A stretch of DNA of 64,000 nucleotides from Eledone cirrhosa (Eukaryota): contig OZ024740.1 in NCBI GenBank assembly GCA_964016885.1, positions 245,334,001 to 245,398,000 on the forward strand. The letters run 5' to 3'. Of the stretch, positions 4,195 through 60,510 are shown piece after piece (the first letter of the stretch is position 1; the number at the start of each line of letters is the position of its first letter). The position numbers and the translations under genes are program-made. The notes under the pieces were generated by a model, which did no database searches, was not told the origin of the DNA, and worked only from the letters and a program-made list of their open reading frames with translations.

Positions 4195-4357
4195 TTGTGT
4201 ATGCAAATATATCTGTACACGAATATATAATTATATATATATATTAAAATAATAGATTAAAGTTTAAGCAAAGAATCGCTTCTTTCACCCTTAACGGGAT
4301 CTTCTGAAACTAAAAAAAATCAATCTGTGAACGCAGAAGTAAATATTTCGAAAAACG

Positions 4358-4391
<34 letters not shown>

Positions 4392-4493
4392 CGTCATAAT
4401 GTCGTAATGCAGACAGCAGACACAGAGAGAGGCGCAACGTTATATCTATGTATCTATCTAAAAAGAAAGACTAAGAGAGAGAGGGAGAGAGTG

Positions 4494-4525
<32 letters not shown>

Positions 4526-4713
4526 GGGGGGGAGCGAGAAGGAGAGATAGTGTGGGAGAACGAGAGAGGGAGAGAGAGAGAGAGGTCGCTAAATCGCGTA
4601 ATGCGGTCCCTAGGGCATTGAAAACAATTTGAAAATAATCGGTTGGCTGGTTCTCGAGTTTTAGGGAGTCAGACAGACAGACAGACATACATTCTCTGTT
4701 TTAGATATATAGA
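4195..4713 (-). mobile_element. Non-autonomous Helitron, 5' part
   Basis: Reverse-complement homologue of 5173-5710 with the same TC-start 5' end; left boundary approximate. Confidence 0.6.
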
Positions 4714-4721
4714 TAATATAA

Positions 4722-5156
4722 TCGGAAAAAATGAAACGAAATTTCATTTCCCACTCTTAGAACGGCTGTTACTTAAATATAAGTATGTACACGTACATAC
4801 ATATATGTATACAGACGTACAGTAGTATGTATATATATATACATACATGCACACATATATATATGCACGTATGGATTCACCGAACATTTATTATAATGCT
4901 CGGTGTGTTTGTAAAAAAACAAACATCCCGTATTAAGCCGTAGTGTCTAGCAACCATCGTTGCTCGTTTGTTCAACACTGACAAAGAACGTTGTACTAGT
5001 TTCAAGCTTATTAGCTATCGTCAGCAACGTATACCTTCCTGCCAGATTGTTGAACGTATATACTTACCTTATGAATATTAACGGCTGAGTAGCCCAATTT
5101 GCATATCGAGTGGGTTAATCGGCCGGGTGCACCGAAAACGATAAACGGAAAAAATG
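4722..5156 (-). mobile_element. HHR-containing ~425-bp retrozyme-like monomer (family B)
   Basis: Homologous to 15915-16920. Begins and ends with cggaaaaaatg (4723, 5146), giving one monomer plus a short terminal redundancy. Confidence 0.7.
4988..5030 (-). ncRNA. Minimal type I hammerhead ribozyme
   Basis: Minus strand: acgttg CTGACGA t-agct aata agct-t GAAA ctag TA caacgt. Perfect 6-bp stem I and palindromic stem III (actagt). Confidence 0.8.
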
Positions 5157-5172
5157 TACATAGATAATATAA

Positions 5173-5611
5173 TCTATATATCTAAAACAGAGAATGTCTG
5201 TTTGTCTCCCTAAAACTCGAGAACCACCCAACCGATTGTTTTCAAACGTTACACATGTAATATTTATGGTCCTGTGAGTGTTTTGAGCAAACAATATTTC
5301 AAATTTTCAATGTGCTAGGGACCGCATTAAGCGATTTAGCGATCTCTCTCTATAATTCTTAGTCTTTCTTTTTCGATAGATACATAGATATAACGTTGCG
5401 CCCTTATAATATCTGTCTGTATGTCTGTCTGTCTGCATTGCGACATATATGACGTTATATGTGTGTGTGTATATATGCATATATAGTGTGTGTATATATT
5501 TAGTGTGTAACGTTTTTCGAAATATTTACTTCTGCGTTCACAGATTGATTTTTTTAGTTTTAGAAGATCCCGAAAGCAGCGATTCTTTGCTTAAACTTTA
5601 ATCTGTTATTT

Positions 5612-15203: not shown

Positions 15204-15914
15204 ATTGGTGCTCTGAAATAGCGATGTATACATGAATGTATGTATAGTATATTTGGCAATATACCGTATGTTTAATTAAAAACATTTTGAAGACCTTGCG
15301 TTATCATTTTTAAAGTAGTGACTATGTCATTTACTTCTTTTTTTCCGGCATAACATTCATGTATACATCGCTATTTCAGAGCACCAATCCTACTACCTAA
15401 TTTTTGCTGGACCGGCAATCGCTCTGTATAATCAGCTCCTGATTATTACTGGAATTCTATAAGAATCCAGCTTCTATGATTTTCGGCAAAAGCGATGATC
15501 ACCAACAGTTTGAAACAGACTCTGTTAGCCTCTCTCCCTTCTTTTGCCGAAAAAAAAAGAAATAAGTTTTTTTTCCCTTTTCCCGTTTCGCACCTTTCCG
15601 ACAGACAACCTCCCTACCCACCCCCACCCACCCCGGAAAAAAAACCCCAGTTGATGGATGTTAATCCGAAATATATAGGGACAATTAAATCTCTGCCAAG
15701 GTAACTCTACCTCGTGTTGTTATTTTTATCTTTATCCTTTACGCTCTTTCCTACATTCTTCTACACGCTACAGTCTTCTACACGCCACGCATCTCAACGT
15801 GCACCTACTTACATCTCTCTCTCCACCACCGGATCTTGTTACCCGGAGATTTACCCATCTGCATTGTCGAGGCTTCCAAACGACTTAAAGAAATTTACCA
15901 TATATATATATATA

Positions 15915-16920
15915 AACGGAAAAAATGAAACGAAATTTCATTTCTCACTCTTAGAACGGCTGTTACTTAAATATAAGTATGTATACGTACATACATATAT
16001 GTATACAGATGTACAGTAGTATGTATATATATGTGTGCATGTATGTATATATATATATATATATACATACATGCACACATATATATATGTACGTATGGAT
16101 TCACCGAACAGTTATTATAATGCTCGGTGTGTTTGTAAACAAACATCCCGAATTAAGCCGTACAGTGTCTAGCAACCATCGTTGCTCATTTGTTCAACAC
16201 TGACAAAGGAACGCTGTACTAGTTTCAAGCGTATTAGCTATCGCCAGCAACGTATACCTTCCTGCCAGATGATTGAACGTTTAAAAGTATATACTTTCCT
16301 TATGCATATTAACGGCTGAGCAGCCTAATTTGCATATCGAGTTAGTTAATCGGCCGGGGTACCGAAAACGATAGACGGAATAAATGTTCGGTGAATCCAT
16401 ACGTACATATATATATGTGTGCATGTATGTATATATATATACATACTACTGTACATCTGTATACATATATGTATGTACGTATACATACTTATATTTAAGT
16501 AACAGCCGTACTAAGAGTAAGAAATGAAATTTCCTTTCATTTTTTCCGTTTATCGTTTTCGGTACCCCGGCCGATTAACTCACCCGATATGCAAATTAGG
16601 CTTCTCAGCCGTTAATATGCATAAGGAAAGTATATACTTTCCGACGTTCAATCATCTGGCAGGAAGGTATATGTTGCTGACGATAGCTAATAAGCTTGAA
16701 ACTAGTACAGCGTTCCTTTGTCAGTGTTGAACAAATTAGCAACGATGGTTGCTAGACACTACGGCTTAATACGGGATGTTTGTTTACAAACACACCGAGC
16801 ATTATAATAAATGTTCGGTGAATCCATACGTACATATATATATGTGTGCATGTATGTATATATATATATACATACTACTGTACATCTGTATACATATATG
16901 TATGTACGTAGACATACTTA
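15915..16920. mobile_element. Fold-back pair of HHR retrozyme-like units (family B) in (TA)n
   Basis: A minus-sense monomer (15915-16381) is joined to a plus-sense run of about 1.25 units (16382-16920); aaatgttcggtg recurs at 16382 and 16809. Confidence 0.75.
16671..16713 (+). ncRNA. Minimal type I hammerhead ribozyme
   Basis: atgttg CTGACGA tagctaataagctt GAAA ctag TA cagcgt. The inverted copy at 16211-16253 has a mutated core, CTGGCGA. Confidence 0.75.
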
Positions 16921-16993
<73 letters not shown>

Positions 16994-17245
16994 TTGCGAG
17001 GTTTTTTATATGAAATCGTGTGTCGAAACAGATATTGTTATATTTGGGGAGGGTCATATTTGCGTAATATTGCCAGAATTAATAACAGAACACACTCACT
17101 GTTTGGTTGGTTTTCGCTTCTCGCTGTCTTTTATATATATATATCTGCGATCTAACTTACTCGGTCCTCAATGTTGCCATTGACTGACCGGCGGTCAAAA
17201 ATAATACAGATACAATATAGACAAACACATATATATATATAGTTT

Positions 17246-17288
17246 ACATAAATCTTTCGTTGCACATCTGCAACATCGTCAGTGGTGT
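17246..17288 (-). ncRNA. Hammerhead candidate in PLE 3' region
   Basis: CTGACGA t-gttgca gatg tgcaac GAAA gatt TA; stem I weak. Confidence 0.5.
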
Positions 17289-17558
17289 TATATTCATTGT
17301 TCCTCCTGTTGTGTTGTATGTCTACGCCATTTTTTTTGTTCAGTCTGTCTATATATTTATTTATTTATTTATTTGCTTGTTTGTTTATCTTATTTTATTT
17401 TGTCTTCTTTGCGCATGCGTTTGCGTGTGTGTATAGTGTTATGTGTGATGTGTGACTAGTGTGTATAGTGTTGTGTCTGCTGGGTGACTAGTGTGTGTTT
17501 ATGTGCTTGTGTATGTATTTATTTATCTTATTTTATTTTATTTAATTTACTTATTTAT

Positions 17559-18725
17559 TTATACTTCTCTTAGGTCAGTGTTTGTTTGGGTGTTGTTGTT
17601 GTTCCACTCATTCTTTCTGTTTAGCTTTGGTCTTCTAATTTCTATTTCACTGGCCTCTCTGATTTGCCTATCTGCTGGGTCATTCCTATGTTTAGATATT
17701 ATTCTAATTTCTATGTTGTCTATGTTACCGTCATGATGTTGTCTAGCATGTTCGTATAGTACTGACCCGTTTTTTCGTCCTTTTAGTTCCCCCCAGTGTT
17801 GGTCTATCCTTTCACCTATGCTACGAGCTGTCTCACCTATGTATGTTGTTGTCGTGTTTCTGCAAGTACCCTCTGTACATCTTATGCTATAGACTACGTT
17901 TCTAGTTTTACAGTTTATCCGGGGGTTCACCTTACATATGATACATTTCCTATTGGTACAGTGGGTTTTCTTAAAAGGGTAGGTTTTGCTGATCAGGGAT
18001 TTTATGGTGGTTCCTGGCTTTTCTACCACCTTTATTTTTAAGTGGGTCTTTCTCAGGGCCTTTCTACACTGGTTAGCTAATTTCCCTCCAGGGGTGGCGT
18101 CCACAAACATGACACTCTGATATCTCTGGTTGTCGTACCATGATGTGGCCTTCCCTATCTTATGTCTAGCCCTATCTAAGCTATTCCATGATTTGCTCCT
18201 GTATAGTGGGCAAATTCCTTTCATGTCCAGTTCTATGAGGGTCTTATACTTTTCCATGGCTCCTTCGTATACTCTGACTCTGTCTCTTTGGTTGTAGCCA
18301 GAGAACTGCATGCGGTTGATGAAGTGTTGGATGTGTCCTTCCATTTCTGTTGGGTCGCACATGCTGGACACATTCTTCATCACTCGTACCAAATCTGCGA
18401 TCAGAATATTAAACTTAGCACTACTGGACATTGCTGAGTTTTTGAGTATCAGGTATTTGGAGGCCATGGGTTTAGCATAGTGTGAGTGGAGAATTTGGGC
18501 TCTCTCGTCTATAGTGTTAATCCAGAGTTCTGTGTCTAATACAGGTAGTCTATTGTTAGGGTGTTTGGAAGGGAAGTCTATAGTTACAGTTATACTCTGG
18601 TGTATGGAATTAGCTATCTGCTGGATGCTTTCCATCGTGCTACGTTCTAAATCAAACTTGTTAGTGCTCTCTAGTGGGGGTGTTCTTATAACTATATTGA
18701 TATCGTCTACATAACGAGAGTACAT
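17559..18725 (-). CDS. Penelope-like element protein, 5'-truncated: RT C-terminus + Zn linker + GIY-YIG endonuclease
   Basis: Open 388 aa with RYVDD, LPVLD, Cys cluster, VVY...YIGETARSIGERIDQH and E...LN. Motifs differ from the Naiad-type copies. Confidence 0.9.
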   Translation of the reverse strand: MYSRYVDDINIVIRTPPLESTNKFDLERSTMESIQQIANSIHQSITVTIDFPSKHPNNRLPVLDTELWINTIDERAQILHSHYAKPMASKYLILKNSAMSSSAKFNILIADLVRVMKNVSSMCDPTEMEGHIQHFINRMQFSGYNQRDRVRVYEGAMEKYKTLIELDMKGICPLYRSKSWNSLDRARHKIGKATSWYDNQRYQSVMFVDATPGGKLANQCRKALRKTHLKIKVVEKPGTTIKSLISKTYPFKKTHCTNRKCIICKVNPRINCKTRNVVYSIRCTEGTCRNTTTTYIGETARSIGERIDQHWGELKGRKNGSVLYEHARQHHDGNIDNIEIRIISKHRNDPADRQIREASEIEIRRPKLNRKNEWNNNNTQTNTDLREV

Positions 18726-18967
18726 GATGAGGTCTAAATCCGCTTCTTAAAACACTGTGTTTCCTCCAAAACATACACAACAAACATATCAAAACAAGTA
18801 AATAATTTATTATTGAACAAAACACAAGCTGAACGGCTAAAACACACAATAACAGTTAATATGAAAAGAACAACATACACAAAAGTCAACGCTAACTAAT
18901 CAGTATTTCGTGGATAGCTGGTTGTATTATTTTATATGAGACATAATTAAATAAATATCTCTTTCCT

Positions 18968-23271: not shown

Positions 23272-26200
23272 ATGGCGGACAAAAAAAATTGTCCACAGGG
23301 AGGAACAGCGGGTTGTTCGGAGGGTGGAACAGCCGATTCCATCCAATCACAAGGCAAAGTAAAAAAACAAGTGAAACAGCAGCAGCAGCGACAGTGACAG
23401 TGCTGGTGACAACAGCAGCAGCAGCCACTGGAACAGTAGCAGCAGTAGTGCAAATTACGACAAAAACTTCCCTACGTTAGAAAAATCAAACACCACCACC
23501 ACCCCAATAACAACAATAACAACAGCAACAGCCATAAAGAACCCAAGGAGCAACAACTATAACAACAGCAACACAGAAGAAAAAAGACAAACAAAAACAC
23601 CAACGACGACAACAACAACAAAGACAAAACTAGCGATGAGTCAACACAAATCAAAACAAACACGTCTTTCGCTAAAGCGACAAACAATTTTGAATAAGTA
23701 CACATCACCAATGAAGAAATAAAACAAGCAAAGGTCTTGGTTAAAAAGACCGGACACAGGGTAAGTCTCACCCGCCCAGCTGAGATAATAAGAAACAAGC
23801 TTTTGTGTTCGGTCAGTTATCGCACTATCGGAACAAAATCGCGGCGCGTCGAACGGGCCACGGAGTCACAAGTCCAAAGGGCTATGGGTGCCGTCTGAGC
23901 ACAGAAAACATACATAGCCCGAGGATCGAGATATGGCACTGTGGCTGTGCTCTTCGCTACACCAGAAGAAGCCAGAGCACACTCCATTGCGCCACTCCGC
24001 AGTGACGAAATCATAATGATGCCCACATACTGCAGCCAGAGAGTCGTGAGGGTTAGAGTATCCCAGGTTCCGCCTTCAGTGGAGATGGCGTGGTTGACGG
24101 CGGCCGTCCTCGCTGACGTTGAGGATTCAACAACTATCCTCGACGTCATGTGAATAAGACAGGAAAATTGGACAGGGTCGGGGATGGAGCTAATCATCCA
24201 AGCAAACCACGAGAGCATTGAAGTCATCCCCAATGTAATAGACCTGGACGACGACAGCCATCTACCCGTGACTGTCGAAGGTAGGCGCCCAAGGTGTAAT
24301 GGATGCGGTGACATGACGCACCTTAAGGCATTCTGCGCCAAACTCACCAAAACGGGCACGCGCCCACCCCTTCTCCCCACGCCGTGCCCCGCAACTGGAG
24401 CAGACAAACAAAGAAAGAACACAGTGGCAGAAGAGAAATCACCATCCCCAACAACAAAAACACCATCTCTTCCACCACCAACAGAACCAATGGAAAGCAT
24501 GCCCCTTCCTGATATAGCTAAATCGGACAAGGAGTGCGATGAGGTCGAAGAATGGAGAACTATCCCAACAAAAAAAGGAAAAACTCCCTACCTTCGTCCT
24601 AAAAAAAAAGAGGAAGAAAGACCCCCCCCCCAAAAAAAAAAAGAAAATGAAAACTACCCCACCTCCTCCACCACCATCAACAGCCACACATCCACAACCA
24701 CCTACACCATCACCGCCAACACCACCAGCATCACCGCCACCACCACCACCACCACCACCCTTACCATCTACCCCATCGTCACCTCCAACAACACGACAGC
24801 AAACACAAAAAGCACCAACACCCAAACAGCAGACACAATACACAGCCATAGACGCAGACAACACAAAGCTTTTAAATTACATTCAACACCACACCAACAT
24901 CACAGAAACAAACTATGTACACACCACCAAAATTGCACCTCCTATCCGAGCCAACATGGCTTCTCTCAGAATAGGTAGCATAAATGTACGTGGCCTGGGG
25001 TCGTCATTGAAGCAGCGCCACCTGCTGAACGATCTCAGGTCACTAAACATAGATGTGGTGGCCATCAGTGAGACCAGAATCTCCGAGGCACGGGCATTCA
25101 TACCCATTTTCGGCGGCTACGAGGTGTACACATCTCCAAGCCGTCCAGGATCTGGGGGGTCGGGGTGGCCGTGTTGTTCCGGAGAGGTTTGAATCTCGGG
25201 ATACGGGCCGTCTTCTTGGACCCAGAAGGTAAGTTGGTGGTGCTGGACGTAACCAGCGGAGAAGGACAAGCTTTCAGGCTAGTGGCCGTCTATGCCCCAA
25301 CAGGAGCAGGACGACCTGAATTCTTCCGGCGTCTGGAGACCTTTCTTGGAACGTCCCGCTCCTTAGTGTTAGTGGGCGACTGGAACGGGATCTTAGATGC
25401 ACGCTGGGATTGTGTGGGATTAGCGGATGGGTGAGGAGGATGTAAAAGCCTCACAAACTTCCATCAGACGTTTTCAACTGTCTGACAGGTACCGATTGGA
25501 TTTCCCGAATGTGCCAATGTGGACTTGGACAAACCGCATAGGGTCATCCAGATTATATCTAGATAGGGTATTTTGTAGGGAAATAGAAAGGTCTAGCATA
25601 GGCTGTCCACAGTTCAAGATATTCAGCTACACGGACCACAAATTCGTGGTTTGTGTGGTTGACTTAGATAGGCTTCATAGACAGGGACCCGACTACTGGA
25701 AACTAAACGCGTCGTTATCAGCGCACAAAGCTTACAGAGACCAGATTAGCGAATTAATTAAGCGAACGTTGTCAGGGGCCATCGTCAACAACAAATGGTG
25801 GTTTGCCCTGAAAAGTGCGATTAGAATAGAGTCCATTAGGTTAAGTAAAGCGTTAGTAACAGAGAAAAATAGAGCAGAAGGAAATCTAGTTAGCAAATTA
25901 GACGAGGCGCTTAGTAATGGCATCGCGACCGACGTGCTTGCGGCGAAATTGGCTCTCGATCAATTTTTCAACGCTAAGCACGAAGGCTGCATTGTCAGAG
26001 CTAGGGTGCGTGCTCTCAGACACGAGGGGACGAAAGCCGTTCAATGGGCCCGGGTGGCGGAGACGCGTCGTGGCAACAAAGCCACGATCCGGACTTTGGC
26101 GAACCACGACGGGCGCATGATACTCGATACCGGGCAGATGTGTGCGGCTTTTCAGCAGGACTTTGCTCAGCTGTTCGGGGGCAGTGGCGGGCCGCATCAG

Positions 26201-27285
26201 TGCCTACCTCTACAGACTACCGCGGCTCTCGGCCACTGAGGCGGAGTGTTGCGAAAGGCCGATAACAGCTGCTGAAGTACGGGAGGAAATGACTAGCTGC
26301 ACATTGGGTAAATCGCCTGGTTTGGATGGTCTGCCCTACGAATTTTACATACATATGCCAAACTTGTTCGGAGGCCTCTTGGCGGACGTCTACTGCAACT
26401 GGCAGCAGCGGTGGCGCTGCTGAGAAAGGATCCGAACAAGGGGGATAACATAGAAAATTTCAGGCCCATAACTCTGCTAAACACAGACTTCAAGATTTTG
26501 GCTAAGGTACTAGCAAAGAGGTTGGCGCTTGTCGTTAGTGGTCTGATGGGAGAGGCGCAAACATGCGCCATTCCAGACAGATCCATCCACGACAACCTCC
26601 ACCTCATGCGATGCATCGTAGAGAGGGTAGCTAGGGAACCTGGCATGGGTGGGTCTTTGATCAATTTAGATCAGTCGAAAGCTTTCGATAGGGTCGACCA
26701 TCGTTATCTGGCGGCAGTCCTAAGAGCAGCTGGCTTTGGGCCCGTCTTCAGAGGCTGGATTGCTGCTATGCACAGCGCCATCTGCTCTGTGGTGAGAGTG
26801 AACGGTCACCTTTCGGAACCGTTCAACATCATGCGCTCGATCCTTGCTGAGTCGTTGAGGAGGATCCCACGCGAACTATGATGCGGAAGGACCGTGTCAG
26901 CATATACAGACGACGTCACCGCAGTGGTCTCGAACACCAAACACATCGAGGCGATCCGCACCACACTAAGAGAATACGAGGTAGTGACAGGAGCAATGAT
27001 CAACCAGGTAAAATCAGTAGGCCTGCAACTCGGCACCTGGATAGGCAGGTCCATGCCGTCCAACAGCGTCGTCGGGCGATGGATGAACGGGCGGTTAAAT
27101 TGCTAGGGGTCTGGTTCGGTCCGGACCTCCAGACGGACAAAAACTGAGAGGAGCTCACGAGCAAGGTGGCTTCTCTCACTCAAAAATGGGCCGAGAGGAA
27201 GCTATCCCTGAAAGGTCGAGCGGAGGTGGTGAATGCGTGCATCGCGTCCGTCATCTACTACGGCCTGACCGTCGTACCTTGTCCT
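23272..27285 (+). mobile_element. Tx1/L1-clade non-LTR retrotransposon, frameshifted and 3'-truncated
   Basis: ORF1 has a CCHC knuckle (CNGCGDMTHLKAFC). ORF2 from 24956 has an APE domain (SINVRGL, ISET, GDWNG, YTDH) and RT motifs (KSPGLDG, FRPITLLNTDFK, DQSKAFDRV, YTDD). The QGCPLSP motif is deleted. Confidence 0.9.
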
Positions 27286-29766: not shown

Positions 29767-30132
29767 CGTAGGTCCCGGGTTGAGTCGGGGATAACCACAG
29801 TAAGTACGGTACTCAATACATGGCAGAGTAAAATTTTTTATTTTATAGAAGGAGCTTAATATGGCACCCAGCTTCCTGAAGATTTCATCTGAATGAAACA
29901 GTACTAGTCCTGTAGAAGCTCCTTCTATAATATATATATATATAGAGAGAGAGATGAGATTCTACAGGACTAGAATTGTTTCATTCATTAGAAATCATTA
30001 GGAATCTGATGATTTCTAATGAATGAAACAGTTCTAGTCCTGTAGAATCTCATCTATATTAAAACTTTTATACTCTGCTATGTATTGAGTACCTTACTTA
30101 CTGTGGTTACCTCCGATTCAACCCGGAATAAC

Positions 30133-30135: not shown

Positions 30136-36358
<6,223 letters not shown>

Positions 36359-59877: not shown

Positions 59878-60510
59878 GTTATATCGTGATATAAGAGTTA
59901 TAAGAGTTATATATATAGTTATATCGTGATATAAGAGTTATAAGAGTTATATATATAGTTATATCGTGATATAAGAGTTATATCGTGATATAAGAGTTAT
60001 AAGAGTTATATATATAGTTATATCGTGATATAAGAGTTATAAGAGTTATATATATAGTTATATCGTGATATAAGAGTTATAAGAGTTATATATATAGTTA
60101 TATCGTGATATAAGAGTTATAAGAGTTATATATATAGTTATATCGTGATATAAGAGTTATAAGAGTTATATATATAGTTATATCGTGATATAAGAGTTAT
60201 AAGAGTTATATATATAGTTATATCGTGATATAAGAGTTATAAGAGTTATATATATAGTTATATCGTGATATAAGAGTTATAAGAGTTATATATATATAGT
60301 TATATCGTGATATAAGAGTTATAAGAGTTATATATATAGTTATATCGTGATATAAGAGTTATAAGAGTTATATATATAGTTATATCGTGATATAAGAGTT
60401 ATAAGAGTTATATATATAGTTATATCGTGATATAAGAGTTATAAGAGTTATATATATAGTTATATCGTGATATAAGAGTTATAAGAGTTATATATATAGT
60501 TATAAGAGAT
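59878..60510. repeat. 40-bp minisatellite, about 15 copies
   Basis: Unit tatcgtgatataagagttataagagttatatatatagtta. Confidence 0.92.

Follow-up and report, generated by a model that had tools for sequence, protein, structure and literature searches.

Non-LTR retrozymes and their circles have been described in metazoans, with Penelope-type elements (PLEs) named only as a strong candidate mobilizer in the accessible text of PMC7229834, and the available part of a preprint (10.64898/2026.07.22.740005) argues the PLE link from co-occurrence and terminal-repeat homology. According to the accessible portions of these two sources, metazoan non-LTR retrozymes are built of tandem units that are non-coding, a few hundred bases long and low in GC content, contain a type I hammerhead, occur as monomers to multimers, have target duplications longer than 4 bp and co-occur with PLEs (PMC7229834; preprint 10.64898/2026.07.22.740005). 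These properties are shared by family B of Eledone cirrhosa, the subject of this analysis, which has a non-coding 427-bp unit with a GC content of 0.36 and a type I hammerhead. B also shares its U-U at the helix II base with one axolotl motif in the same portions. Head-to-head arms, paired fixed 3' ends and (TA)n targeting, all present in B, are undescribed for retrozymes in these portions, and the word "inverted" has 0 occurrences in the main text of PMC7229834. Homologous PLE terminal repeats are given for 24 of 57 Xenopus families in the available part of the preprint, whereas none was found for B among the PLE sequences compared. Retrozyme circular RNA is described in the accessible text of PMC7229834, whereas the circle of B is a predicted one. 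Views on the enzyme of animal retrozymes and on the circle as a template have previously been based on co-occurrence and phylogeny.

Inverted copies, one-sided tails and (TA)n targets are known for PLEs (PMC8557442, PMC3846280, PMC8969392, accessible portions). The Neptune/Naiad-type PLEs, as presented in the available text of PMC8557442 and PMC3846280, resemble B in 5' truncation, partial tandems, an inverted 5'-truncated copy, a tail at one end, microsatellite targets and target duplications near 10 bp. These elements bear an endonuclease, whereas B encodes nothing, and their tail measures 30-40 nt compared with 59 nt in B and ~70 nt in A. The tail is called optional or often one-sided in the same text, whereas here the one-each pairing was counted and is nearly strict. 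A circular template has been proposed for PLE tandems (PMC4209133, available part). The green anole element Poseidon, studied in vitro (PMC11167929, accessible text), is similar to B in that its tail is delimited by two internal start sites, one of them with a stem-loop, and in having an AT-rich target at which both DNA strands are cut and extended. Its protein is a predicted dimer, and uncleaved RNA is used with no need for hammerhead activity. The start sites of Poseidon are not homologous to the target and its RNA is linear, whereas B and A have a short TA match and many-unit copies.

The thousands of young and old insertions considered here bear on the origin of the inverted copies and the one-sided tail of PLEs. 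In LINE-1 twin priming, both cut ends prime cDNA and the products join head-to-head via microhomology, with the first priming at the poly(A) tail and the second at a variable site. B differs in that the two sites lie at fixed internal positions and the content of one arm overlaps that of the other. The literature searched contained no report of two-armed insertions of retrozymes, of a counted rule of one site per arm or of haplotypes shared by sister arms; PLE reviews of 2005-2006 and supplements may hold cases. The element class and the PLE tail are already known, and it is the pairing rule and its presence in retrozymes that were not found in that literature.

The window analyzed here is a stretch of 64,000 nucleotides that contains three B segments (c1, c2 and c3), a family A array and a PLE (Table 1). 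The B segments had been recognized in the initial annotation with periods of 423, 459 and 427, and their places, these periods and their terminal redundancy (~12-16, 8-16 and 113-118 nt) were all recovered. On mapping, c1 and c2 are on the minus strand and c3 is on the plus strand. The segments are redundant at their ends as that annotation had claimed, but they are not three independent permuted monomers, since c2 and c3 are the arms of a single two-armed insertion (15912-16923) that lies head-to-head in (TA)n. Registers are counted from the predicted cleavage site, 16708 being 1 for B and 30526 being 1 for A. Both c1 and c2 span registers ~258 to 273 plus one unit, whereas c3 spans 99 to 214 plus one unit. 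The 3' ends of c2 and c3 are at the sites termed S2 (register 273) and S1 (register 214), respectively, and both continue into (TA)n. The S2 position within c3 is 16553.

Table 1. Coordinates of the features in the window
Feature	Position	Strand	Remarks
B copy c1	4722-5157	minus	single arm, one unit + ~12-16 nt, 3' end at S2
c1 target-site duplication, left copy, 15 bp	4709-4723	+	exact match to 5160-5174
c1 target-site duplication, right copy, 15 bp	5160-5174	+	
Hammerhead of c1, type I, core intact	4987-5031	minus	
B arm c2, left arm of two-armed insertion	15912-16386	minus	5' register 258
Hammerhead of c2, predicted inactive	16210-16254	minus	core change at 16244
5'-to-5' junction of c2/c3	16379-16386		8-nt overlap, one mismatch
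B arm c3, right arm, 1.27 units	16379-16923	+	5' register 99
Small predicted hairpin, S1 (16494) in loop	16486-16501	+	circular fold, A/B alignment
59-nt tail from S1 to S2, with long gaaa/tttc hairpin	16495-16553	+	z -2.1
Hammerhead of c3, type I, intact core	16670-16714	+	predicted cut after 16707
(TA)n target tract, common to c3 and adjoining PLE, tail-to-tail	16924-16988		
Young PLE, 5'-truncated	16989-18892	minus	ORF fragment 17559-18746; short inverted piece 18736-18892
Family A array, 12.6 identical 467-bp units	30455-36358	+	3' end at homologous S1

The common start of c1 and c2 at register 258 led to the idea of stalling after exactly one round; genome-wide, 7 of 90 arms exceeded a whole unit number by no more than 20 nt, compared with ~4 expected (hand count). 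Subfamily alleles are common to c2 and c3, and c1 belongs to a different B subfamily. The two arms carry different alleles at one polymorphic position (register 64), and their overall divergence is ~5%, with ~2% private changes in each, so a single template is not demonstrable for this pair. The changed core allele of the c2 hammerhead was found in 1 of 69 insertions. In the window array of family A, one private allele is present in all units. Contigs from four sequencing runs of unstated kind provided allele frequencies only. The copy c1 is located exactly at the center of a long imperfect inverted repeat of another repeat family (4313-4723 and 5163-5555), whose arms are ~400 bp long with blocks that are 90-100% complementary.

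The unit of family A (467 bp) is slightly over the retrozyme range of ~150-450 bp, for which GC contents under 45-50% are typical, and a third variant, C, is ~88% identical to A and has ends in common with it. The homology of A and B, already proposed from the window, was upheld by an alignment score of 259 with the hammerhead and the microsatellite excluded, compared with a maximum of 130 in 500 dinucleotide shuffles. The alignment is collinear, in agreement with the motif order reported as common to B and the 467-bp unit. A second A/B segment scored 102, a value that 2 of 500 shuffles reached. The hammerhead is composed of a stem I of 6-7 bp, a stem II in which A and C differ by paired changes, and a stem III formed by a 2-bp palindrome; its core and stems I and II are present in c1, c3 and 67 distinct motif variants. 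A palindromic 2-bp stem III is the mark of the dimer-dependent hammerhead type in the available part of PMC4209133. The c3 hammerhead has such a stem III and a U-U at the base of stem II, and with this U-U the family B ribozyme may be a weak cutter. The Rfam model HH9 matched A units with 36.1 bits, under the gathering score of 52, and no B match to HH9 was present among the 150 of 227 matches listed. Rfam microRNA matches over B copies were rejected as due to the microsatellite, and they too were under the gathering scores.

Folding of the isolated hammerhead gave no signal relative to shuffles. Folded as circles, A and B each reached a z of about -10 against 40 shuffles, a score that derives in part from the palindromic microsatellite. 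S1 is placed in the loop of a small hairpin and S2 right behind a long hairpin in the predicted circular folds of both families; in A, alignment and predicted fold put S1 inside a hairpin of different sequence. Frames overlapping B copies are derived from the microsatellite only, and there is no LTR. On the sequence features of unit size, GC content, hammerhead, non-coding nature and target duplication, family B is classified as a non-LTR retrozyme.

A search of the 3.0-Gb assembly with B gave 1,955 first-look candidates, 40 of which were scored. The exact hammerhead pattern had 9,732 matches and its reversed control 0; A and C make up most of the matches listed. B does not occur as monomers only, as had been suggested: arms range from 0.1 to ~3.5 units, and there are arrays of 14 units and of up to ~48 kb. 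The satellite-size array of ~48 kb (G000:C1:96.99-97.04 Mb, L193-L206) ends at S2, and an array of 14-16 units at C1:300.72-300.74 Mb (L159-L161) occurs twice. Units of these satellite-size arrays are 87-91% identical to c3 and contain internal duplications. A 2.2-kb tandem segmental repeat with the same B arm in each unit was also identified (G000:C4:349.896-349.918 Mb; L012-L018, L029, L030 and L166).

The ends of B arms were counted at 90 loci from three best-hit searches, which gave 73 records after removal of duplicates, edge-cut records and records shorter than 150 nt. Two arms were present in 41 records and a single arm in 32. The 3' ends (n=114) were located at S1 (registers 207-221) in 46 cases, at S2 (263-275) in 44 and elsewhere in 24, some of the last being alignment breaks in the microsatellite. 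Thus, 90 of 114 ends lie in windows that make up 6.6% of the unit, with a distance of ~59 nt between S1 and S2. The 5' ends were uniform (p=0.85), and only 5 of 114 were inside the S1/S2 windows. The two registers taken for starts in the initial annotation therefore recur genome-wide as 3' ends. Fixed linear ends had been named there as evidence against permutation; the 3' ends are fixed, at two sites, whereas the 5' ends are not. Free circular permutation is unsupported, since the 3' ends are confined to these two sites.

Both ends were at a site in 26 two-armed records, with 24 S1+S2, 2 S1+S1 and 0 S2+S2 pairs; the other 15 had one end elsewhere. A further 27 loci picked by pattern included 15 array interiors or ends and 2 duplicates, and all four newly resolved pairs (4/4) were S1+S2. 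The pooled count is 28 S1+S2 pairs out of 30 (p=4e-7 against independent choice). Junctions between the arms (n=41, approximate) overlapped by 1-16 nt in 25 cases, were blunt in 4 and gapped in 12. Target duplications of 13, 14, 9 and 9 bp were found in 4 of 26 two-armed insertions, and the other 22 are in simple repeats.

Families A and C follow the same pattern. The 27 young A insertions comprised 18 S1+S2 pairs, 1 S1+S1 pair, 4 with one end elsewhere and 4 single arms, the end sites being at registers 228-235 (S1) and 302-303 (S2). A second A/C set was composed of 20 stretches selected among the 100 pattern matches that come first on contig 1; all 11 resolved pairs were S1+S2, and the rest included 2 edge-cut cases, 2 with another end and 6 single arms. 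The pooled A/C count is one arm per site in 29 of 30 pairs with both ends at a site. The A end sites align with those of B and are homologous, and every end site closes with a short run of A/T that extends the (TA)n target. An A-type two-armed insertion at L266:6710-7272 has (CAT)n instead of (TA)n on both flanks.

The two-armed inverted structure and the one-site-per-arm rule, neither of which was recognized in the initial annotation, point to Penelope-type machinery. B copies are probably produced by a PLE-like enzyme that copies one RNA, itself probably circular, from both ends of a staggered DNA cut. This PLE-type priming model is drawn from the architecture, the end statistics, the pairing, the shared variants and the target duplications. 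Tandem copies would be transcribed, cleaved by hammerheads acting in pairs and circularized into a structured RNA. A PLE endonuclease would cut AT-rich DNA with a stagger of 9-15 nt; S1 would form a few base pairs with one DNA 3' end, and S2 with the other. Each reverse transcriptase would then travel round the template, beyond the hammerhead and over a random length, and the two cDNA ends would be joined via microhomology.

A PLE with the same architecture adjoins the B insertion in the window, where 17559-18746 (minus) is a truncated version of the 1217-aa frame of a young family whose tandem unit measures 4117 bp. Reverse transcriptase (RT), CX4CX2C linker and GIY-YIG motifs are visible in the 1217-aa frame; a C-terminal GIY-YIG with a CX2-5CxxC linker after the RT characterizes the Neptune clade, a possible placement of this family, and the linker also marks Nematis. 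Pfam RVT_1 matched with E=1.4e-4, below the cut-off, the whole frame gave nothing in Pfam at E 0.01, and a PDB search gave weak RT matches only. Nineteen two-armed PLE insertions were chosen for long arms and not for their ends. Both ends were resolved in 18 of these, and all 18 pair an end at 272-277 with one at 320-335; with 2 further pairs, one arm per site was found in 20/20. By analogy, this neighboring family with its two-site architecture is a candidate for the type of helper.

Nearly equal 5' registers were seen in ~6 of the 18 PLE pairs, and these symmetric junctions fit a fold-back or a shared stop. The second arm could have arisen by fold-back (self-priming) from the first cDNA or from antisense RNA, for which variants common to both arms also speak, as does the self-priming proposed for rotifer Penelope elements in the accessible text of PMC3846280. 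In five PLE insertions (L212, L216, L218, L220 and L047/48), however, the S1 arm extends beyond the S2 arm on the 5' side, and the S2 arm has tail sequence past the end of the S1 arm. In these non-nested pairs neither arm can have been copied from the other, a point against fold-back, although the test is weaker on a circular unit. The fold-back origin is considered very improbable, and priming by both cut DNA ends on one RNA is likely from the sequence comparisons.

Divergence in B was 4.0% between sister arms, 4.3% between passes within one arm and 5.5% between insertions. The between-insertion value was not reached by 31 of 33 sister-arm comparisons and by 30 of 37 within-arm comparisons. 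The corresponding PLE counts are 2 differences in 24,339 sites for sister arms and 848 in 876,204 between insertions. No mixture of shared haplotypes was found in 24 of 27 A insertions; different haplotypes are fixed in different insertions, across all units of both arms. Young A insertions contain one private haplotype in up to ~23 units. Two variants are fixed in all 17 units of L139, one in each of L144, L145/168 (~19 units) and the window array, and six in the ~19 units of L278, and an A haplotype is fixed in the ~23 units of L140/141. The remaining 3 of 27 (L148, L154 and L176) are haplotype mosaics. The switches in L148 are away from the cleavage site, whereas L154 has three haplotypes in series, each fixed elsewhere, with switch intervals that include the cleavage site.

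These haplotypes bear on the form of the template. A linear tandem RNA transcribed from a genomic array and left uncleaved, with the same PLE priming from both DNA ends, is unlikely as the template but has several points in its favor: long B arrays exist as a possible source, the three mosaics are compatible with it, the B hammerhead looks weak from its sequence, and unprocessed RNA is the main substrate in vitro (PMC11167929, available text). A daughter made in this way is no longer than its transcript, yet distinct new variants are fixed in every unit, and the long two-armed arrays are nearly free of mutations, a pattern that points to repeated amplification from a single unit. Copying of a linear self-cleaved monomer, with the enzyme jumping from the 5' end to a 3' end of the same or another molecule, would yield tandem cDNA with no need for a covalent circle and would agree with the switch intervals of L154. 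Against this stand the arms that end at a site in B, of which 73 of 90 extend through the cleavage site, 16 lack the length to reach it and 1 stops within 8 nt of it, with no pile-up of 5' ends at the cleavage site among B arms. The long A arrays are almost without junction errors and the switches of L148 are not at the cleavage site, and jumping on a monomer is rated as highly unlikely. Circular RNA is the favored template, and the circular or multimeric template proposed in the initial annotation is supported by the arms that cross the predicted cleavage site.

Dynamics at the DNA level (unequal exchange and excised DNA circles) could also create permuted copies, and large B arrays with internal duplications and insertions that were tandemly duplicated later are of the kind this would produce. 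It does not account for 3' ends that are fixed and 5' ends that are random, for the target duplications, for insertion into (TA)n, for the conserved pairing of the hammerhead or for an architecture that is the same as in a PLE encoding an RT. For dispersed copies, this origin is largely excluded and its probability is close to negligible; it may be the source of later growth in the big B arrays. Retrozymes carry the full PLE insertion signature, with a nearly strict one-site-each rule for the arms and a shared template, and PLE-type mobilization of A and B is well supported by these sequence patterns.

A more specific scheme is put forward tentatively, at rather less than an even chance. A dimeric Penelope-type enzyme would grip both cut ends and one circular ribozyme RNA, with one subunit per fixed site and both rolling round the circle. 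The PLE tail and the inverted copy would be the two outputs of one obligatory coupled reaction, which retrozymes would hijack by RNA shape alone, without sequence kinship to their helper. If this is true, the long-unexplained tail and inverted copy of PLEs are products of one reaction. Two start sites, their pairing and multi-unit cDNA from a circle are testable predictions, and the same genome offers both a 430-470-nt substrate and an apparently intact 1217-aa PLE frame.

A partner of A and B was searched for among PLEs. In the loci searched, no B or A arm was continuous with a PLE ORF. Comparison of A/B with the terminal repeat and the hammerhead of the neighboring PLE gave no homology (41 and 275 of 500 shuffles reached the score), nor did comparison with a second PLE family (58% protein identity) or with sequence behind 21 other GIY-YIG hits; 22 regions behind other ORFs were compared, which is a small portion of the 10,596 GIY-YIG candidates. 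A B insertion ~1 kb behind a GIY-YIG ORF (L260) was rejected as a partner, being a separate inverted insertion.

The apparently intact 1217-aa frame is located at L044:3231-6884 and has a long asparagine-rich insert before the RT. This element has many copies of 99-100% identity with a tandem period of 4117, and a hammerhead-like motif with GAAAG after stem II. At least two further PLE groups were seen (L154, L228 and L236-L265); the group at 58% protein identity has the S1 end motif in common with the neighboring family, and no hammerhead was found behind the frame of older GIY-YIG families. Short hammerhead-like motifs of another family are located just upstream of the A array (29868-29912 and 29955-30044), one pair being inverted, and similar ones are present in L052, L231, L044 and L212. 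Long plus-strand frames of 274, 224 and 271 aa were identified at 24154-26240 in the window, one of which we take, from its motifs, to resemble a LINE endonuclease fragment. The window also contains a 40-bp minisatellite at 59969-60504, with 13.4 copies that are 98% identical.
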